A stretch of 12,963 nt of DNA from a virus (IMGVR_UViG_2541047825_000010:1-12963); one strand, 5' to 3'; shown: positions 3,287 to 12,963, counted from the first letter of the stretch. A program made the numbers and translations. Notes: generated by a model from the sequence alone, not told the origin.

Positions 3287-3937
3287 ATGAAAACTCAATT
3301 GATGGGAGAGCGCATTCGCGCTCGGAGAAAAGAACTCAAGATCAGGCAGGCCGCACTTGGAAAGATGGTCGGCGTGTCTAATGTTGCCATATCTCAGTGG
3401 GAACGCTCTGAGACAGAGCCAAATGGAGAGAATCTTCTCGCCCTGGCTAATGCGTTGAAGTGTTCCCCTGACTATCTGATGAAAGGAGAGGAAAGTCTTT
3501 CAAACATTGCCTATCACAGTAGGCATGATCCAAGAGGGTCATACCCTCTGATTAGCTGGGTGAGCGCAGGATGCTGGATGGAAGCTGTAGAACCATATCA
3601 TAAGCGTGCAATAGATAACTGGTACGATACAACCGTAGACTGTTCAGAAGATTCGTTTTGGTTGGACGTGAAGGGAGACTCAATGACGGCTCCGGCCGGT
3701 CTCAGTATCCCTGAAGGAATGATAATACTCGTCGATCCTGAAGTAGAGCCGCGTAACGGGAAACTGGTAGTTGCAAAGCTCGAAGGAGAAAACGAGGCAA
3801 CTTTCAAGAAGTTAGTTATTGATGCAGGCAGGAAGTTTCTAAAACCACTTAACCCACAATATCCGATGATCGAGATCAACGGAAACTGCAAAATCATCGG
3901 CGTAGTTGTCGATGCAAAACTAGCAAACCTTCCATAA
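3287..3937 (+). CDS. c2: Prophage repressor C2 (CI-type, HTH plus LexA-like S24 autopeptidase domain), 216 aa
   Basis: Near-identical to P22 C2 as recalled (MxTQLMGERIRARRKxLKIRQAALGKMVGVSNVAISQWERSETEPNGENLL..., C-terminal GDSM...KL). Confidence 0.93.
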   Translation: MKTQLMGERIRARRKELKIRQAALGKMVGVSNVAISQWERSETEPNGENLLALANALKCSPDYLMKGEESLSNIAYHSRHDPRGSYPLISWVSAGCWMEAVEPYHKRAIDNWYDTTVDCSEDSFWLDVKGDSMTAPAGLSIPEGMIILVDPEVEPRNGKLVVAKLEGENEATFKKLVIDAGRKFLKPLNPQYPMIEINGNCKIIGVVVDAKLANLP

Positions 3938-3960
3938 GGGGGCATTCGCCCCTTTTTTTT
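3938..3960 (+). terminator. Rho-independent terminator after c2
   Basis: GGGGC-ATTC-GCCCC hairpin followed by eight T. Confidence 0.7.
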
Positions 3961-4002: not shown

Positions 4003-4064
4003 AATTTAAGTTTTCTTCAAAAATACTCTTGACCATTAATTAAAGAGATCTTAAATTTAAGCCA
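4003..4064 (+). promoter_or_regulatory. OL operators and PL promoter
   Basis: Operator-like 18-mers ATTTAAGTTTTCTTCAAA (4004-4021) and ATTAAAGAGATCTTAAAT (4039-4056). -35 TTGACC (4029-4034), 17-bp spacer, -10 TAAATT (4052-4057), with the operator overlapping the promoter. Confidence 0.55.
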
Positions 4065-4103: not shown

Positions 4104-4144
4104 GCTCTTTAACATTGATGGGATTGTCCCGCCGAAATGCGGGA
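4104..4144 (+). promoter_or_regulatory. nutL (boxA GCTCTTTAACA, boxB hairpin TCCCGC-CGAAAT-GCGGGA)
   Basis: Identical boxA and boxB to the minus-strand copy after cro. Lies in the PL leader upstream of N. Confidence 0.6.
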
Positions 4145-4251: not shown

Positions 4252-4551
4252 ATGACAGTAGTCATTACATATCTGGCTGACGATAACGCCAGAAATCGCC
4301 GCAGAGCACGCAGACAGGCTCAACGTGAACAGGCAATGCAAGAGCAGCGACTGGCGCGAAAAATTGCGCTAAAGCTCTCTGGTTGCGTCAGGGCAGATAA
4401 AGCAGCATCACTCGGAAGCCTTCGCTGCAAGAAGGCAGAAGAAGTCGAGCGTAAACAGAACCGTATTTACTACCGCAAGCCACGCAGTGAAATGGGTGTG
4501 ACTTGTGTTGGTCGCCAGAAAATGAAATTAGGCAGCAAACCACTTATTTGA
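4252..4551 (+). CDS. N: Antitermination protein N (P22 gene 24 equivalent), 99 aa
   Basis: N-terminal arginine-rich motif NARNRRRARRQAQREQ. C-terminus ...NRIYYRKPRSEMGVTCVGRQKMKLGSKPLI resembles the lambda N C-terminus as recalled. First gene after PL and nutL. Shine-Dalgarno GGAGG. Confidence 0.85.
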   Translation: MTVVITYLADDNARNRRRARRQAQREQAMQEQRLARKIALKLSGCVRADKAASLGSLRCKKAEEVERKQNRIYYRKPRSEMGVTCVGRQKMKLGSKPLI

Positions 4552-4559
4552 GGTGAGAT

Positions 4560-5030
4560 ATGACAAAATCATGGAGCGTACCTTTTCCTGAATCAGAAAC
4601 TGAACATGATGGAATGCCTGTTTTCTGGAGATTCCAGGCGACAGTTGAAGAAGATGGAATCAAAATATTCGCACTTCAATATATAGCTTTTCATCAGACA
4701 GAGCATTATGCATGGTTGGTTCCTGCGCATTGGATTATTGATTTTAAACCAGCACCAAATCAGTGGTTACGGGAATGGAAACAAAGGAGAAATAGATATG
4801 CAATTAAGAAAGTAGCAAAAAATGCAGAAAGATCTTTTGCATTCCCAACGAAGAAACTTGCCATTGAAAGTTTATTGCGCCGGAAGAAATACCATTTAAT
4901 GAGAATCAAACAAGATTTGGCTGTTGTATCAACTCTTGTTGATGGGATGAAGAATATTGATACATCAACACCAGATATTGAATATAACTTTGGACACAAC
5001 CAAGAAACAGAAAATTGGGTATTCTACTAG
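4560..5030 (+). CDS. Hypothetical protein, 156 aa, AT-rich moron
   Basis: ATG 8 nt after the N stop with Shine-Dalgarno AGGTGAG. G+C is lower than neighbours by eye. No predicted transmembrane segment and no recognised motif. Confidence 0.7.
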   Translation: MTKSWSVPFPESETEHDGMPVFWRFQATVEEDGIKIFALQYIAFHQTEHYAWLVPAHWIIDFKPAPNQWLREWKQRRNRYAIKKVAKNAERSFAFPTKKLAIESLLRRKKYHLMRIKQDLAVVSTLVDGMKNIDTSTPDIEYNFGHNQETENWVFY

Positions 5031-5054
5031 GCCGCATAGTCGGCCTTTATTTTT
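5029..5054 (+). terminator. Rho-independent terminator after the 156-aa ORF
   Basis: AGGCCG-CATAGT-CGGCCT hairpin followed by TTATTTTT. Confidence 0.6.
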
Positions 5055-6011: not shown

Positions 6012-6617
6012 ATGAGCAAAGAATTTTACGCAAGACTGGCAGCTATTCAGGAGAATCTGAACGCGCCAAAGAATCAGTACAACTCATTCGGCAAATATAA
6101 ATACAGAAGCTGCGAAGACATTCTTGAAGGCGTTAAGCCGTTACTGAATGGCCTGTTTTTATCAATCAGCGATGAAGTTGTGTTGATTGGTGATCGGTAT
6201 TACGTGAAAGCCACGGCAACTATTACCGATGGCGAAAACAGTCATACAGCAACCGCTCTTGCACGAGAGGAAGAAAGCAAGAAAGGAATGGATTCTGCAC
6301 AAGTTACTGGAGCTACAAGCTCTTATGCACGCAAGTATTGCCTCAATGGTTTATTCGGCATTGATGATGCGAAAGATGCAGATACCGACGAGCATAAACA
6401 TCAGCAGAACGCAGCAGCAAAGCAATCAAAACCATCACCTACACCTGAACAGGTTCTAAAAGCATTCACTGACGCAGCAATGCAGAAAAACACCGTAGAA
6501 GAGCTTAAACAGGCGTTCGCCAAAGCGTGGAAGATGCTCGAAGGCACACCGGAGCAGCACAAAGCGCAGGACGTTTACAACATCAGACGAGACGAATTAG
6601 AAGGAGCGGCTGCTTAA
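6012..6617 (+). CDS. erf: Erf, essential recombination function (single-strand annealing protein), 201 aa
   Basis: MSKEFYARLAAIQENLNAPKNQYNSFGKYKYRSCEDILEGVKPLL... closely matches P22 Erf as recalled. First ATG in frame; the track start at 5982 is a TTG. Confidence 0.9.
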   Translation: MSKEFYARLAAIQENLNAPKNQYNSFGKYKYRSCEDILEGVKPLLNGLFLSISDEVVLIGDRYYVKATATITDGENSHTATALAREEESKKGMDSAQVTGATSSYARKYCLNGLFGIDDAKDADTDEHKHQQNAAAKQSKPSPTPEQVLKAFTDAAMQKNTVEELKQAFAKAWKMLEGTPEQHKAQDVYNIRRDELEGAAA

Positions 6618-7000
6618 TGGCACATTCGATTACAGTAAGACTAAACAAACCCGCAAGAGAGTTTCAGGCCGGGGAAAATATCGGATTCAACATCCGTGCT
6701 GGCGTTCAGTATTACGATCGCCAGACAAAAAAGAAAGAATGGACAAACTACAGCGCCGTTGTATTTGCCAAGCCGGGAGCGCAAGCGGATTACTACCGTA
6801 GTGTTCTTGTTGAAGGTGGCATTGTGGAAATTACCGGAGAAAACATCAGGGTTGATGTTTATCAGGGGCAAAATGGTCAATCAATCACTCTTGAATTACT
6901 GAATGCAAAGATTGGATTTGCAGCTTCAGGAAACAGCCAACAGCAGCAAAGTAGCAATCATCAAAATCATCCTGAATACGACGATTCAATTCCATTCTAG
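6617..7000 (+). CDS. Compact SSB-like single-stranded DNA-binding protein, 127 aa
   Basis: C-terminal tip PEYDDSIPF resembles the conserved bacterial SSB tail DDDIPF, after a Q-rich linker and a short strand-rich N-terminal domain. Shine-Dalgarno AAGGAG. TAATG overlap with erf. Confidence 0.65.
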   Translation: MAHSITVRLNKPAREFQAGENIGFNIRAGVQYYDRQTKKKEWTNYSAVVFAKPGAQADYYRSVLVEGGIVEITGENIRVDVYQGQNGQSITLELLNAKIGFAASGNSQQQQSSNHQNHPEYDDSIPF

Positions 7001-7023: not shown

Positions 7024-7317
7024 ATGCCAGCGCCTCTGTATGGTGCGGATGACCCGCGCCGCTGTTCCGGCAATTCCGTATCGGAGGTGCTGGATAAATT
7101 CAGGAAAAACTACAACCGGATAATGTCGATACCGCAGGAAACGAAAGAGGAAAAGGAATTTCGCCATTGTATATGGCTTGCAGAGAAAGAAGAACGCGAG
7201 CGAATTTACCAGACATCAATCCGACCATTCCGCAAAGCCACATATACCCACTTCCCTGAAATTGACCCGCGCCTGCGTAATTACCGCTCACGCTATGGCG
7301 CTATCAGTAATGACTGA
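7024..7317 (+). CDS. Hypothetical protein, 97 aa
   Basis: Shine-Dalgarno TAAGGA 7 nt upstream. Position after erf and the 97-aa length are compatible with P22 Abc2 (anti-RecBCD), but this rests on synteny and length only. Confidence 0.6.
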
Positions 7318-7327
7318 GGAATTTACC

Positions 7328-7492
7328 ATGAGAGGACTTGCATACAATCCCGGCATTCTTCCGGCAGAAATGATTATTCGCCAACGCGTAAAGCCAATGC
7401 CATCGAGAGAGGAATTGCTTAAGAGAAATTCTTTTCCATCAGTGAATCAAAACAAATATCTGAATGCGATGTGGCGGAGTGGGAAAAAATGA
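7328..7492 (+). CDS. Hypothetical protein, 54 aa
   Basis: Shine-Dalgarno GAGGA 7 nt upstream. Stop overlaps the next start. Confidence 0.45.
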
Positions 7493-7926
7493 AACAAATG
7501 TCACTAATTGAGATGGATGGTTTTCTGAAAGGTAAATGCATCCCACGAGATTTAAAGGTTAACGAAACAAACGCTGAATATCTGGTGCGTAAATTTGCTG
7601 AAGCGGAGGCCAAGTGCGCGGCGCTGGCTGCTGAAGTTGAGGCTGTGAAATCAGCACATCAAGATGCTGTAAACACCATCATGTATACCGCCAATCGAAC
7701 GGGTGTTTTATACACAGAGAAGGCAATTCAAATGTCCTGCAAAACCCCGGCCACCGATGCTTTCCTGACTGAAGTCCGGGCTAAGGCGTTTGATGACCTT
7801 TGCGCGGCGTTCGTTAAGCACGCGTCGGTGTCCGGGCTGGACGATGGCGACTGCGTTACGGTGAAAGAGGCGACTGACGCCCTGCTGCATTGTGCGGAAC
7901 AGCTTCACAAGGGAGTGCATTCATGA
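7489..7926 (+). CDS. Hypothetical protein, 145 aa
   Basis: ATGA overlap with the upstream ORF. Shine-Dalgarno GGAG. Ala/Glu-rich predicted helical segment. No family recognised. Confidence 0.6.
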
Positions 7927-8156
7927 GCAACCTACTACCATGTCCATTCTGTGGCGGTGCAGCGCACGTTGCCAGCGAAGCAGATCACCCTGAATATGGC
8001 TCTGGCGGTCGATTCTATTTCGTTCGATGCGGTACGTGTCGCGCTCAATCTGGTAGCAAATATGCAGCGCCTGGAAATGACTGCGCGATTTTTTATTCAG
8101 AGGTTAGAGCAGAGTGGAATCAGCGAGCAAAGGAGGCAACCAGTGAGCAAGATTGA
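7923..8156 (+). CDS. Lar-family-like zinc-ribbon protein (restriction alleviation), 77 aa
   Basis: N-terminal LLPCPFCGG...C..C zinc-ribbon signature typical of the Lar family as recalled. ATGA overlap with the upstream gene. Confidence 0.6.
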   Translation: MSNLLPCPFCGGAAHVASEADHPEYGSGGRFYFVRCGTCRAQSGSKYAAPGNDCAIFYSEVRAEWNQRAKEATSEQD

Positions 8157-8550
8157 CTATCAGGCACTGCGTGAAGCGGCAGAGAAAGCCGGTGAAGATA
8201 AGTGGCAGGCTAAAAAAATAAATGGTGATTTTTTCGTTATTCGTCACGGTAGTTATACAAGACAGCATGGCTACACATCGTATCAACCCATTGCGGAGAT
8301 TGATTGTAAGCCAGTCCGGGATTTTGTTGCCAAGGCTAATCCGGCTACCGTGCTGGAATTACTGGATGAACTGGAAGCAGCAAAAAAGCGCATTGCAGAA
8401 CTGGAAGCGCGGGAAATATCGCTCCCGGAACGTAGCAGCATGCTTCATCGAACAGATTTTCACGATGATTACCAAACGGTAATGGCATACAAAGTTTCTG
8501 AAGTCATCGATGCAATCCGCGCTACTGGCATTCGCATCAAAGGAGAGTGA
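8143..8550 (+). CDS. Ead/Ea22-like protein, 135 aa
   Basis: GTG start 6 nt after a strong AGGAGG. KIDYQALREAAEKAGED and NPATVLELLDELEAAKKRIAELEA resemble Ea22-family motifs as recalled. Overlaps the Lar-like gene by 14 nt. Confidence 0.6.
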   Translation: MSKIDYQALREAAEKAGEDKWQAKKINGDFFVIRHGSYTRQHGYTSYQPIAEIDCKPVRDFVAKANPATVLELLDELEAAKKRIAELEAREISLPERSSMLHRTDFHDDYQTVMAYKVSEVIDAIRATGIRIKGE

Positions 8551-8551
8551 T

Positions 8552-8839
8552 ATGGCAACTTTGCAGGAATTAATCGACCTGACGCCAGAACAGGAAAAAG
8601 CGTGGAATCGCCTTGTGAAGGCTGTAAAGGATTTCAGGGCAGCCGGAGGAAAGTTTTATAGCGTCCTGGACACGCTGAGCGCATACAACGGCGAGCACGT
8701 TGCCAGCATTGATAACGATAAGGGCTACCACACTGCAAGCGTCTATATGCCTAGCATTGATGCGCCAGGGCTAACCAGTTGGGCTGATGATTGGCACGGC
8801 ATCACGCTGAAAGATGGCGTTGAAGTGGATGAGGACTAA
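8552..8839 (+). CDS. Hypothetical protein, 95 aa
   Basis: Shine-Dalgarno AGGAGAG. ATG 1 nt after the upstream stop. Confidence 0.6.
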   Translation: MATLQELIDLTPEQEKAWNRLVKAVKDFRAAGGKFYSVLDTLSAYNGEHVASIDNDKGYHTASVYMPSIDAPGLTSWADDWHGITLKDGVEVDED

Positions 8840-8842
8840 CAC

Positions 8843-9529
8843 ATGACTACTTTTACCGACAAAGAACTGATTAAAGAAATCAGAGAGCGAATCGGCAGCC
8901 TGGACGTGCGAGACAATATTGAGCGCCTGGCTTATGAAATCGCACTGGCATCGCTGGCAGCAGTATCGGATGAACGAGCAGCCTATGAATTATTTATGGA
9001 GAAGCGTTTCGGGGAATCTGTAGATCGCCGTAGGGCAAAAAATGGCGATAGAGAATACATGGCATGGGATATGGCGCTTGGCTGGATTATCTGGTGTCAC
9101 CGCGCCGCCATGCTTCAGGGTAGCCAACCTGTAAGCCAAACTTACAACTTGCCAGAATTAATCGAAGGCATGGAAGTTTCCATTGATGTAAGCACTTGTG
9201 ATGCTGATTTAGGTAATCGCTATTTCGGCACCGTCACCGAGGCGTTAGAACTTGATACAGCCAAGAATGGTTACATCCTCCTGGTTCAGGACGCAGAGCC
9301 AAACTTCGATGTAAATGGCAACTATCCGGTAATTCCGGATGGTTGGATAAGCTGTAGTGAGCGAATGCCCCCTCAAGATGATTGGATTTTAATTTATTCA
9401 AAGCACGGCGAGTATATGGCAGGACAGGTGCAAGGGGAATACGTGGAGTTGAGCGACGGCACTTTATCGTGGTTAGGGAACGTCTTGTTCTGGATGACGT
9501 TGCCAGAACCTCCGAAGGGGGCGAAATGA
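8843..9529 (+). CDS. DUF551-like phage protein, 228 aa
   Basis: C-terminal DGWISCSERMPPQDDWILIY...WMTLPEPP resembles the DUF551 signature as recalled. Shine-Dalgarno GAGGA. Confidence 0.7.
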   Translation: MTTFTDKELIKEIRERIGSLDVRDNIERLAYEIALASLAAVSDERAAYELFMEKRFGESVDRRRAKNGDREYMAWDMALGWIIWCHRAAMLQGSQPVSQTYNLPELIEGMEVSIDVSTCDADLGNRYFGTVTEALELDTAKNGYILLVQDAEPNFDVNGNYPVIPDGWISCSERMPPQDDWILIYSKHGEYMAGQVQGEYVELSDGTLSWLGNVLFWMTLPEPPKGAK

Positions 9530-9786
9530 TGGATGTAAAAGAGAAGGTTTTGCAGGTGATGCGTTCCCGGGCTGCCCTGCAAGATAAAGCTCTCGGCGGG
9601 GAATATCCATTCACGATAGCAACCTGGAATCTGCGGTTGGCAATGGAGAAGGAATTTCCTGATGAAGAATGGCGTTCGGCAGATTTGCGCAAAATTCTTA
9701 TGGAGCTGGCTAAAGACGGAACAGTATCCAAAGATACCCATGCCAGCCGGATTGGTCAGGCGGTATGGAGACTGGAGGTGAGGTAA
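9526..9786 (+). CDS. Hypothetical protein, 86 aa
   Basis: ATGA overlap with the upstream stop. Shine-Dalgarno AAGGGGG. Confidence 0.6.
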   Translation: MMDVKEKVLQVMRSRAALQDKALGGEYPFTIATWNLRLAMEKEFPDEEWRSADLRKILMELAKDGTVSKDTHASRIGQAVWRLEVR

Positions 9787-10070
9787 TGGCTAACCTGCAA
9801 CTTGCCGTTAAAGGTGAATACTTCGATGCCATGATTCGCGGGGAGAAAACGGAAGAGTATCGCCTGTGTAATGACTACTGGAATAAGCGCCTCGTTAACC
9901 GTAAGTATGACCGCCTGATTATCACAAAGGGATATCCGAAGCGCGACGATTCCAGCCGCAGAATTGACGTCCCGTATGACGGATATGAAATCAAGACAAT
10001 CACACATCCCCACTTCGGCGATAAACCGGTAAAGGTGTTCGCGATAAAGGTGAATATCGGCAATGAATAA
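9786..10070 (+). CDS. ASCH-like small beta-barrel protein, 94 aa
   Basis: LAVKGEYFDAMIRGEKTEEYR fits the ASCH pattern (YF..I..G.KT.E.R) as recalled. TAATG coupling. Shine-Dalgarno GGAGGTGAGG. Confidence 0.55.
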   Translation: MANLQLAVKGEYFDAMIRGEKTEEYRLCNDYWNKRLVNRKYDRLIITKGYPKRDDSSRRIDVPYDGYEIKTITHPHFGDKPVKVFAIKVNIGNE

Positions 10071-10104
10071 CAATCCTCGAACTCGCGGGGATTTCTTTTA
10101 TCTG

Positions 10105-10130
10105 AACTCGCTACGGCGGGTTTTGTTTTA
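10105..10130 (+). terminator. Rho-independent terminator closing the coupled operon
   Basis: AACTCGC-TACG-GCGGGTT hairpin followed by TTGTTTTA. A degenerate upstream copy sits at 10078-10100. Confidence 0.45.
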
Positions 10131-10141
10131 TGGAGATGATT

Positions 10142-10441
10142 ATGGCCTGTTCAACATTCAACCATCTAACGTTACAGAAATACCAGCCAGACCCTGAAGA
10201 TTTATGCTCACTGTGTGGCGGAAATCATGGTAAAGCCGCCATGATCGAATGTAAGGACAAAATCCACATTTGCCTTAATTGCGTTGATGTCCTCGTTGAT
10301 ATCAAAAATGAGAGAGAAGATAAAAAGCGTAGCGAGGCTATTCGCGCATTAGATTCATGGATGCGAGATGGGTATAGTGCTGCGCAAATTTATGACTTCG
10401 CAATATCAAAAGGCGAAATACCAGGAGTGCGCATCGAATAA
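10142..10441 (+). CDS. Hypothetical Cys-rich (CxxC...CxxC) protein, 99 aa
   Basis: Three in-frame ATGs (10130, 10136, 10142). 10142 is chosen for the GGAGA Shine-Dalgarno 5 nt upstream. Cysteine pairs CSLCGG and CLNC. Confidence 0.55.
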   Translation: MACSTFNHLTLQKYQPDPEDLCSLCGGNHGKAAMIECKDKIHICLNCVDVLVDIKNEREDKKRSEAIRALDSWMRDGYSAAQIYDFAISKGEIPGVRIE

Positions 10442-10987: not shown

Positions 10988-11188
10988 ATGCAACACGAAC
11001 TACAGCCTGATTCACTGGTTGATTTGAAATTCATCATGGCCGATACTGGCTTTGGTAAAACCTTCATCTACGACCGGATTAAGTCCGGCGACCTGCCAAA
11101 AGCCAAAGTTATCCACGGGCGAGCAAGATGGTTATATCGTGACCATTGTGAATTCAAAAATAAGCTCTTAAGCCGCGCCAATGGGTAA
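10988..11188 (+). CDS. AlpA/Xis-like excisionase-type DNA-binding protein, 66 aa
   Basis: LVDLKFIMADTGFGKTFIYDRIKSGDLPKAKVIHGRARW fits the AlpA-family HTH pattern as recalled. Shine-Dalgarno GGAGA. Lies next to the att-like tRNA fragments. Confidence 0.65.
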   Translation: MQHELQPDSLVDLKFIMADTGFGKTFIYDRIKSGDLPKAKVIHGRARWLYRDHCEFKNKLLSRANG

Positions 11189-11715: not shown

Positions 11716-12963
11716 TTATATTGCTGAAGGTACTGGCGTTTCCATCACTATTTGCTCACGTTTTTTACTCAGGAAGAAAATGCCAAATAGCAACATCAGG
11801 CAGACAATACCCGAAATTGCGAAAAAAACCGTCTGGTAGCCTGCGTGGTCAAAGAGTATCCCAGTCGGCGTTGAAAGCAGCACAATCCCCAACGAACTGG
11901 CAATTTGAAAACCAATCAGAAAGATCGTCGACGACAGGCGCTTATCAAAATTTGCCACGCTGTATTTGAAGACGGATATGACACAAAGTGGAACCTCAAT
12001 GGCATGTAACAGCTTCACTAATGAAATAATCCAGGGGTTAACGAATAGCGCGCAGGAAAGGATACGCAACGCCATAATCACAACACCGATAAGTAATGCA
12101 TTTTTTGGCCCTACCCGATTCACAAAGAAAGGAATAATCGCCATGCACAGCGCTTCGAGTACCACCTGGAATGAGTTGAGATAACCATACAGGCGCGTTC
12201 CTACATCGTGGGATTCGAATAAACCTGCATAAAAGACAGGAAAGAGTTGTTGATCAAAAATGTTATAGAAAGACCACGTCCCCACAATAAATATGACGAA
12301 AACCCAGAAGTTTCGATCCTTGAAAACTGCGATAAAATCCTCTTTTTTTACCCCTCCCACATCCGCCGCTACGCACTGGTGTTCCTGCTCTTTAAAACGC
12401 ATGTTGATCATCATAAATACAGCGCCAAATAGAGAGACCAACCAGAAGTTGATATGGGGACTGATACTAAAAAATATGCCAGCAAAGAATGCGCCAATAG
12501 CATAGCCAAAAGATCCCCAGGCGCGCGCTGTTCCATATTCGAAATGAAAATTTCGCGCCATTTTTTCGGTGAAGCTGTCAAGCAAACCGCATCCCGCCAG
12601 ATACCCCAGACCAAAAAAGAGCGCCCCCAGAATTAAACCTACAGAAAAATTGCTTTGCAGTAACGGTTCATAAACGTAAATCATAAACGGTCCGGTCAAG
12701 ACCAAGATGAAACTCATACACCAGATGAGCGGTTTCTTCAGACCGAGTTTATCCTGAACGATGCCGTAGAACATCATAAATAGAATGCTGGTAAACTGGT
12801 TGACCGAATAAAGTGTACCTAATTCCGTCCCTGTCAACCCTAGATGTCCTTTCAGCCAAATAGCGTATAATGACCACCACAGCGACCAGGAAATAAAAAA
12901 GAGAAATGAGTAACTGGATGCAAAACGATAGTACGCATTTCTGAATGGAATATTCAGTGCCAT
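11716..12963 (-). CDS. cscB: Sucrose:H+ symporter, LacY-family MFS (CscB-like), 415 aa
   Basis: Twelve-helix hydrophobic profile. Clear LacY-like blocks (DKLGLKK, GPFMIYVYEPLLQ, EYGTARAWGSFGYAIG, PKNALLIG). N-terminus MALNIPFRNAYYRF matches CscB as recalled. Start codon is at the window edge. Confidence 0.85.
   Translation of the reverse strand: MALNIPFRNAYYRFASSYSFLFFISWSLWWSLYAIWLKGHLGLTGTELGTLYSVNQFTSILFMMFYGIVQDKLGLKKPLIWCMSFILVLTGPFMIYVYEPLLQSNFSVGLILGALFFGLGYLAGCGLLDSFTEKMARNFHFEYGTARAWGSFGYAIGAFFAGIFFSISPHINFWLVSLFGAVFMMINMRFKEQEHQCVAADVGGVKKEDFIAVFKDRNFWVFVIFIVGTWSFYNIFDQQLFPVFYAGLFESHDVGTRLYGYLNSFQVVLEALCMAIIPFFVNRVGPKNALLIGVVIMALRILSCALFVNPWIISLVKLLHAIEVPLCVISVFKYSVANFDKRLSSTIFLIGFQIASSLGIVLLSTPTGILFDHAGYQTVFFAISGIVCLMLLFGIFFLSKKREQIVMETPVPSAI

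Follow-up and report, generated by a model that had tools for sequence, protein, structure and literature searches.

A new mosaic of nine tightly packed accessory genes in the predicted early-left operon of a P22-like Escherichia coli prophage

We analyzed a 12,963-nucleotide (nt) stretch of viral DNA (IMGVR_UViG_2541047825_000010:1-12963, hereafter the window), which comprises the immunity and early region of a lambdoid/P22-like Escherichia coli prophage, and focused on a chain of nine small genes at 7024-10070 on the plus strand (g1 to g9; Table 1). The chain is confirmed as real, and the region is very probably the accessory part of an N-antiterminated early-left (PL) operon, in which exchangeable cassettes follow the gene for Abc2 (g1). 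Regions of this kind are well known and already annotated; the present one combines their genes in a new mosaic, and near-identical annotated copies of every chain gene are found in public genomes. The observations that carry this reading are the gene structure, the protein families and their conservation, the mosaicism and the operon context.

Every junction in the chain is an overlap or a gap of a few nt, as the initial annotation had described: from g1 to g9 the distances are +10, -4 (ATGA), -4 (ATGA), -14, +1, +3, -4 (ATGA), and -1 (TAATG) nt. The 14-nt overlap between g4 and g5, reported there with a GTG start after AGGAGG, was recovered as well, with the GTG lying 6 nt 3' of AGGAGG (8131-8136), and this start is backed twice, as position 1 of the PF13935 profile falls on residue 2 and the NCBI Prokaryotic Genome Annotation Pipeline (PGAP) calls the same start. 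A Shine-Dalgarno (SD)-like match of 4-8 nt at a spacing of 4-10 precedes all nine starts, versus 25% of all positions in the region. On 99% identical DNA (E. coli Combat2C1 and strain 85.0412), PGAP made the same nine calls with the same junctions, and scans for promoter-like and plus-strand terminator-like sites inside the chain found none. All nine proteins have full-length PHROG or Pfam matches, and the ratio of nonsynonymous to synonymous substitution rates (dN/dS) was 0.06-0.23 for g1, g2, g4, g6, and g9. The initial annotation had counted four unassigned open reading frames (ORFs) while giving five lengths (97, 54, 145, 95, and 86 amino acids [aa]); of these, the one of 97 aa proved to be Abc2 and the one of 54 aa a DUF2737 member, and the rest are genuine and conserved. 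Conservation of these ORFs, on which their reality had been made to depend, is evident in conserved-length homologues across enterobacterial genera.

The PL-operon setting, as originally claimed, is supported by a cI-type repressor gene, a PL-like promoter, a nutL-like site, an N-like gene, erf, and an SSB-like gene, as predicted from the sequence. As in a lambda-type PL operon, the chain is preceded on its own strand by a repressor gene, a PL-like promoter, a nutL-like site, and an N-like gene, with the N_peptide match lying below its cut-off and nutL read by eye. The nutL-like element (4104-4144) is placed between the PL-like promoter and the N-like gene, and its 5' part is presumably boxA, identified against the consensus as generally known rather than by a tool score. 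Several small plus-strand genes lie between the N-like gene and erf, and the TAATG junction of erf and the SSB-like gene at 6617 indicates that packing is already tight upstream of the chain. A Pfam search of the SSB-like protein gave no match. At the other end, two terminator-like hairpins directly 3' of the chain close the terminator-free block, and two further genes and then the excisionase gene follow. An integrase gene is absent after xis, which agrees with the near-identical Combat2C1 locus. Scans of the whole window found no tRNA gene (ARAGORN) and no RNA match (Rfam).

Table 1. Genes and sites of the window, with the nine-gene chain listed first
Feature	Position	Strand	Description or basis
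g1	7024-7317	+	97 aa, Abc2
g2	7328-7492	+	54 aa, DUF2737
g3	7489-7926	+	145 aa, mosaic, HK620 HkaH-like, phrog_614
g4	7923-8156	+	77 aa, Lar-family zinc ribbon
g5	8143-8550	+	135 aa, GTG start, Ead/Ea22-like
g6	8552-8839	+	95 aa, uncharacterised phage family, phrog_2821
g7	8843-9529	+	228 aa, mosaic with C-terminal DUF551
g8	9526-9786	+	86 aa, "Eaa", predicted winged helix
g9	9786-10070	+	94 aa, ASCH-like, phrog_625
DnaB-type helicase, replication initiator, cII-like and cro-like genes		-	ORF list
cI-type repressor	3287-3937	+	ORF list
cI terminator	3936-3955	+	terminator-like site scan
PL-like sigma-70 promoter	4029-4057	+	TTGACC-17-TAAATT; between cI terminator and N-like gene
nutL-like boxA	4104-4113	+	GCTCTTTAAC; read by eye from sequence
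nutL-like boxB hairpin	4127-4144	+	TCCCGC-CGAAAT-GCGGGA; read by eye from sequence
N-like antiterminator	4252-4551	+	arginine-rich N terminus; PF25694 N_peptide E 8e-4, below cut-off; position 3' of PL/nutL
Erf-family single-strand annealing recombinase	6012-6617	+	PF04404 E 2e-44
SSB-like protein	6617-7000	+	C-terminal DDSIPF; phrog_44 E 2e-28
Two terminator-like hairpins	10072-10093 and 10104-10123	+	directly 3' of chain
Excisionase	10988-11188		identical to gene annotated TorI in E. coli strain Combat2C1
cscB (sucrose permease)	11716-12963	-	prophage boundary adjoins cscB

To place the chain among related loci, we used 80 phage contigs anchored on abc2 and walked downstream by the same start/stop/SD rule that recovers the nine genes here. 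Tight runs were defined by junctions of at most 15 nt after abc2, and as several of them end at contig ends, their lengths are lower bounds: the median was at least 5 genes, at least 5 of the 80 loci had 9 or more, and the maximum was at least 14. The junction vocabulary was the same throughout (+10 after abc2, then -4, +1, -1, -8, and -14), with -14 seen again at junctions from a 77-aa Lar-type gene to an Ea22-like one. The chain is beyond chance yet not unusual, tight chains being the rule among abc2 loci. Gene content, on the other hand, was highly variable, as seen in a co-occurrence analysis of abc2, g6, and g8 loci, which the initial annotation had proposed. The 612 genes downstream of abc2 fell into 96 families, 48 of them singletons, with g3, g5, and g7 joined through common modules in one single-linkage cluster of 144 proteins. 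Of 77 phage loci with g6, 39 also had a g7-like gene, 28 a g5-like gene, 16 g9, 3 g8, and 2 Lar.

Similarly, the 3-kb chain was matched in part by 581 of 50,697 phage records and by 3763 of 5,426 complete E. coli genomes, and none of these records and genomes carried 80% or more of it in one place. The best coverage (75% at 99.3% identity) was in Combat2C1, at the same chromosomal site. Alignment ends clustered at the junctions g5/g6, g6/g7, and g8/g9, and also within g3 (residues ~40-54 and ~84-101) and g7 (~40, ~93, and ~158), where one domain borders on the next. The genes are found in other positions too: a g6-g7-g8-g9 block at 98.8% identity lies between the genes for replication protein P and the small terminase in a different prophage, in strain 85.0412 (locus L163, 2528-4043), and divergent Eaa homologues (57-72% identity to g8) lie in nin regions between replication genes and NinB/NinG/Q, with one between terminase and portal genes and with neighbours unrelated to g7 and g9. 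The nin and terminase positions of the g6-g9 block and the Eaa homologues therefore indicate that the cassettes are not specific to PL operons. Variable neighbours and alternative positions together indicate independent cassettes, sometimes co-inherited, rather than a nine-component system.

On this basis, we propose that one message would run from PL through erf and the SSB-like gene and then the nine genes, with no promoter or terminator inside. The first gene, abc2, would belong with the recombination module, its P22 version binding RecC and, as proposed, redirecting RecBCD towards phage recombination, and the remaining eight genes would be independent, individually exchangeable cassettes. 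The stop/start overlaps, with the SD of each gene in the end of the gene upstream, would be the standard compact junctions at which cassettes join; they may let ribosomes re-initiate, and each gene would also be able to initiate alone. Translational coupling had been asserted for the chain from the outset. Its eight overlaps or small gaps (-14 to +10 nt, all on one strand) are compatible with coupling, and from the sequence coupling via termination-reinitiation is possible; an SD stands before each gene, however, and RNA around the junctions folds no better than shuffled sequence, and obligate coupling is therefore not supported. We also considered RNA structure masking the ribosome-binding sites at the junctions and rejected it, as 70-nt windows around the nine starts folded no more stably than shuffled sequences (z -0.85 to +1.71).

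Three points weigh against this reading of independent cassettes in a PL operon. First, we infer co-transcription and any coupling, and the transcription and translation of the chain are predictions from sequence. Second, among close relatives of g8 (at least 94% identity), 67 of 74 loci have a DUF551 C terminus directly before the gene and 48 of 79 have g9 directly after it, with a TAATG junction every time, and such linkage could mean a functional DUF551-Eaa-ASCH unit, not independent cassettes. Third, the selection signal of g8 at the nucleotide level is weak, its dN/dS being 0.42 (17/5/9 substitutions at codon positions 1/2/3), a value from three close pairs only. As for an obligate DUF551-Eaa-ASCH module, we rejected it, since the linkage is strong in close relatives and gone in divergent Eaa homologues, which points to recent co-inheritance.

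What each gene does here we likewise infer, and we begin with g1 and g2. The g1 protein matched PF11043 over its full length (E 7e-63; 209 bits, cut-off 25; residues 1-97 on profile positions 1-97) and phrog_656 (E 2e-54), and it is ~90% identical over 97 aa to P22 Abc2 (PDB 8B1T/8B1U), with Pro68 conserved and a dN/dS of 0.18. It is co-encoded with the Erf-type recombinase, with one SSB-like gene between. These matches identify g1 as Abc2 (anti-RecBCD protein 2), part of the erf recombination module and not one of the unknowns. P22 Abc2 binds RecC near the Chi-recognition region and has been proposed to redirect RecBCD to Erf-mediated recombination, and its Pro68 engages the host protein PpiB (PMC9836394). 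By analogy, g1 likely acts on RecBCD as P22 Abc2 does; within the chain, a tested function exists for Abc2 alone, and via the P22 orthologue. The g2 protein belongs to DUF2737 (PF10930, E 3e-31; 107.7 bits, cut-off 25) and has a dN/dS of 0.23. A DUF2737 gene comes next after abc2 in 68 of the 80 abc2-anchored loci. DUF2737 as an obligate Abc2 partner was rejected, as it was also located after two unrelated genes: in loci L003-L005, L012, L025, and L039, proteins 88-100% identical to g2 are preceded by a 104-aa (MKKTPWEKWEVDFL...) or a 93-aa protein, not by Abc2. Because it follows different upstream modules, DUF2737 marks the start of the accessory array.

The proteins of g3, g4, g5, and g7 can be tied to named families to different degrees. 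For g3 we found 6917 relatives of 130-240 aa, some of them named ead/Ea22-like, and in a comparison with one relative so named the first 47 and last 60 residues were nearly identical and the middle was replaced. Judged from such alignments, g3 is an internal mosaic whose N- and C-terminal modules are common to proteins named ead/Ea22-like. We considered g3 as a paralogue of g5 and rejected this, as BLASTP detected no similarity between them and the link is solely via mosaic modules in other proteins. The g5 protein matched PF13935 (Ead/Ea22) with an E of 1e-18 (68.4 bits, cut-off 27; residues 2-101 on positions 1-90), which bears out its earlier Ea22-like label, and by profile it is a clear Ead/Ea22 member, predicted to be a coiled-coil protein. 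A search of g5 against solved structures (E<=1) detected no lambda-type Ea22 C-terminal domain, its single match being the unrelated RepB; this is consistent with the known variability of that domain (PMC10834534). The DUF551-like label of g7 also held (PF04448, E 5e-10; 40.5 bits, cut-off 22; residues 167-225), and the rest of this protein matches PHROGs segment by segment, with intragenic recombination borders near aa 40, 93, and 158. In Combat2C1, the g7 equivalent is a different DUF551 mosaic of 268 aa. The Ea22 architecture and DUF551 as a portable domain have been described before (PMC10834534).

The Lar-like assignment of g4 was likewise upheld by PF14354 (Lar_restr_allev; 38.5 bits against a cut-off of 28.6), and its zinc-ribbon cysteines are in CPFC at residues 7-10 and CGTC at 36-39. 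Against NCBIfam TIGR03655 (anti_R_Lar), g4 scored 29.4 bits, below the cut-off of 39.6, and its similarity to Lar/RalR of the K-12 Rac prophage, the only tested member, is 26% identity over 42 aa, covering the zinc ribbon alone (pairwise E 7e-5). K-12 Lar is now annotated as RalR, the DNase toxin of a type I toxin-antitoxin pair (PMC4041452). From these comparisons, the label of a Lar-like zinc ribbon appears right, and the function is not safely transferable.

The g6 protein has 54 clusters of close homologues (Escherichia, Salmonella, Klebsiella, Enterobacter, Citrobacter, and Cronobacter), all named hypothetical, and an exhaustive profile search extended the family to 118 representatives of ~90-130 aa with the motif LTxEQ...FY.VL...LNG...ADDxH. 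Searches of family members against Pfam gave no meaningful match, and the g6 profile matched no solved structure. The gene is under strongly purifying selection (dN/dS 0.06; 51/61/379 substitutions at codon positions 1/2/3). Its AlphaFold2 model, built from a shallow alignment, was poor, with a predicted local distance difference test (pLDDT) score of 51. Two distant relatives are located in tightly packed arrays of small phage genes. In the closest complete genome, Combat2C1, the g6 homologue (L001, 7529-7707) is annotated as a frameshifted pseudogene.

For g8, called "eaa protein" in NCBI names, we found 102 homologue clusters, down to 55% identity, among which the SRIGQAVW wing is invariant. 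Its predicted model (pLDDT 94; topology H-strand-H-H-strand-strand) gave strong structural matches; a winged-helix domain is the high-confidence prediction for this protein. This fold is generic and suggests nucleic-acid or partner binding, nothing more specific. By contrast with the other family labels, the ASCH-like assignment of g9 was not confirmed: the match to PF04266 was 14.8 bits, below the threshold of 21.2 (residues 6-46 on positions 1-37 of 103), and a g9 profile from 5 homologues found no ASCH chain among solved structures at E<=10. A protein identical to g9 is named "ASCH domain-containing" by PGAP, by annotation only, and we keep the sub-threshold label as a possible lead, not as family membership. 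A 105-aa ORF antisense to g9 (9756-10073, minus strand), which matches phrog_20945 with an E of 6e-57, was rejected as a gene, with an in-phase antisense dN/dS of 1.5 versus 0.16 in the sense frame and a reading frame broken in two homologues; phrog_20945 appears to be built on mis-called (shadow) genes. Sequence searches of solved structures with g3-region relatives, g4, g5, g7, g8, g9, and the g6 profile gave no informative match, Abc2 alone being matched.

Previous work on P22-like early-left operons noted that the function of most genes is unknown (PMC8022706), and three functional readings may be considered here. They are not mutually exclusive: we judge for each the chance that it holds for at least some of the genes, and these chances do not sum to one. 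We tentatively entertain, at rather less than even chances, that the main role of the cassettes is to modulate development or host physiology, as lambda/Stx exo-xis genes do, by acting on lysogenisation, induction, or host survival. Pointing this way, g5 is a bona fide Ead/Ea22 protein, and modules of that mosaic superfamily recur in g3 and g7. In lambda and Stx phages Ea22 favours lysogeny (PMC7093339), and DUF551 is present in YfdS, a protein with a link to oxidative-stress tolerance (PMC10834534). The winged helix modelled for g8 would also make it a possible DNA-binding regulator. However, the C-terminal domain, which would bear the specificity, differs, with g5 lacking a match to the solved lambda Ea22 C-terminal domain; functions of the Abc2 and Lar types fall outside this class, and for the present cassettes the argument would be one of analogy.

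It is possible, if on the unlikely side, that the uncharacterised g2, g3, g6, and g8 (also g7 and g9) encode early PL-expressed counter-defence proteins against restriction-modification or other immunity, alongside Abc2 and Lar. These genes are small, turn over quickly, and sit in a fast-evolving accessory region beside the proven RecBCD modulator Abc2 and a Lar-family gene, and it is by this association that screens of phage accessory regions find such genes; one screen used Abc2 as a control, and abc1 triggers abortive infection (bioRxiv 10.1101/2023.04.06.535777). The distant g6 relatives in small early-type gene arrays of other phages are in line with this. On the other hand, searches of Pfam, PHROGs, NCBIfam, and structures revealed no sequence or fold link to known counter-defence proteins, with Abc2 and Lar alone emerging, and the winged-helix fold of g8 is generic. 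The characterised products of the lambda/Stx region, Ea22 and Orf63, influence the choice between lysis and lysogeny (PMC7093339, PMC10834534), g4 is just 26% identical over 42 aa to the tested Lar, itself described as a DNase toxin (PMC4041452), and the same cassettes occur outside PL operons, in PR/nin-type positions. The initial annotation had put the unknowns forward as anti-defence candidates; what ties the remaining unknowns to anti-defence is association by neighbourhood, with no known-family link.

It is improbable that some of the genes serve the host through defence, superinfection exclusion, or a toxin-antitoxin pair, for example as a DNase toxin of the Lar/RalR type. K-12 Lar is annotated as the endodeoxyribonuclease toxin RalR with an antisense small RNA antitoxin (PMC4041452), and Salmonella prophages have defence genes inserted next to those of the Ead/Ea22 type (supplement of PMC12373910); against this, PADLOC gave 0 matches for all nine proteins, the window has no Rfam RNA and the chain no minus-strand promoter-like site, PL-operon genes are repressed in the lysogen, and the kinship of g4 and RalR is distant. 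That some of the nine ORFs are chance or shadow ORFs instead of genes, as might be argued from the weak codon-position signal of g8, the frameshifted g6 pseudogene in one strain, and the shadow ORF antisense to g9 that even has its own PHROG, is already largely refuted and highly implausible in view of the full-length PHROG/Pfam matches of all nine, homologue lengths conserved in several genera, low dN/dS wherever measurable, the confident g8 model, and the PGAP calls of all nine. Just 3' of these genes, a 44-aa ORF at 10063-10197 (plus strand), with a good SD-like AGGTGA, overlaps the end of g9 by 8 nt. We considered it as an extension of the chain and rejected it as probably spurious, as it has no PHROG match, is not in the PGAP annotation, and spans terminator-like hairpins.

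It seems doubtful, with some chance of being right, that at least one uncharacterised cassette is a new kind of modulator of host immunity or host DNA metabolism. The best candidates may be in the g6 family (LTxEQ...ADDxH), whose ~118 representative clusters come from temperate phages and probably also virulent ones, and which has no Pfam or PDB relative. Further candidates may be DUF2737 and the trio of DUF551, Eaa (winged helix), and ASCH-like genes, which travel together in close relatives.

The chain has clear counterparts among known systems. It is like the early-left "ea" region of P22-like phages (P22, ST104, L, and HK620 hka; erf-abc1-abc2-...-xis) in its position after erf and abc2, in its families (abc2, DUF2737 right after abc2, HkaH-like, ead/Ea22-like, DUF551, and ASCH-like), and in its compact junctions. 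Unlike that region, it has no abc1, and the SSB-like gene lies between erf and abc2, filling the interval that is abc1's place in P22 and ST104; its order of nine cassettes was found at 80% coverage or more in none of the phage records and E. coli genomes searched, and its integration module resembles that of TorI/KplE1 and lacks an int gene after xis. The chain also resembles the exo-xis region of lambda and Stx phages (ea22, ea8.5, orf60a, orf61, orf63, and orf73), an early PL-transcribed, non-essential block from the recombination genes to xis, which likewise has an Ead/Ea22 member and in which DUF551 is a portable domain (PMC10834534, PMC7093339). It differs from exo-xis in having Erf/Abc2 instead of Exo/Bet/Gam, in the absence of the orf60a-orf63 cassette, and in a g5 without the lambda Ea22 C-terminal domain. 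As in the K-12 Rac region (recE-recT-ralR(lar)-rcbA-xisR-intR), a Lar-family zinc-ribbon gene lies 3' of recombination genes and 5' of xis, whereas g4 is just 26% identical to Lar/RalR over 42 aa and scores below the TIGR03655 cut-off, and no RalA-like RNA was detected. Finally, the chain recalls phage accessory regions and anti-defence clusters (Silas et al.; anti-CRISPR-type islands), being a variable set of small genes in a fixed position that includes the proven modulator Abc2, but the other eight proteins had no match to a known counter-defence family, and the array has no shared regulator, for instance of the Aca type.

As it stands, the locus matters little, being one more mosaic of a region known for two decades from P22, HK620, ST104, lambda, and Stx phages. 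Its practical value is a shortlist (g6, Eaa, DUF2737, and the ASCH-like protein) of conserved, selected, and predicted early-expressed proteins of unknown function, which are reasonable entries for accessory-gene screens because they lie beside a proven RecBCD modulator. The analysis also exposed two annotation problems, namely a PHROG on an antisense shadow ORF and an "ASCH" label below the family threshold.

Two genes outside the chain are worth recording. Directly 3' of the N-like gene, in the lowest-GC part of the window (~37%), a 156-aa gene (4560-5030, plus strand) matches phrog_1636 (unknown function), is followed by a terminator-like hairpin at 5029-5046, and has no Pfam or PADLOC match; it looks like a moron. 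Just after the chain, a 99-aa protein (10142-10441, plus strand; phrog_3680) carries a CxxC...CxxC pattern and has terminator-like hairpins on both sides. It shows a weak likeness to the ClpX N-terminal zinc finger (Pfam E 0.014; PDB 2DS7 E 0.05) and could, judging from this likeness, be a ClpX-adaptor mimic.

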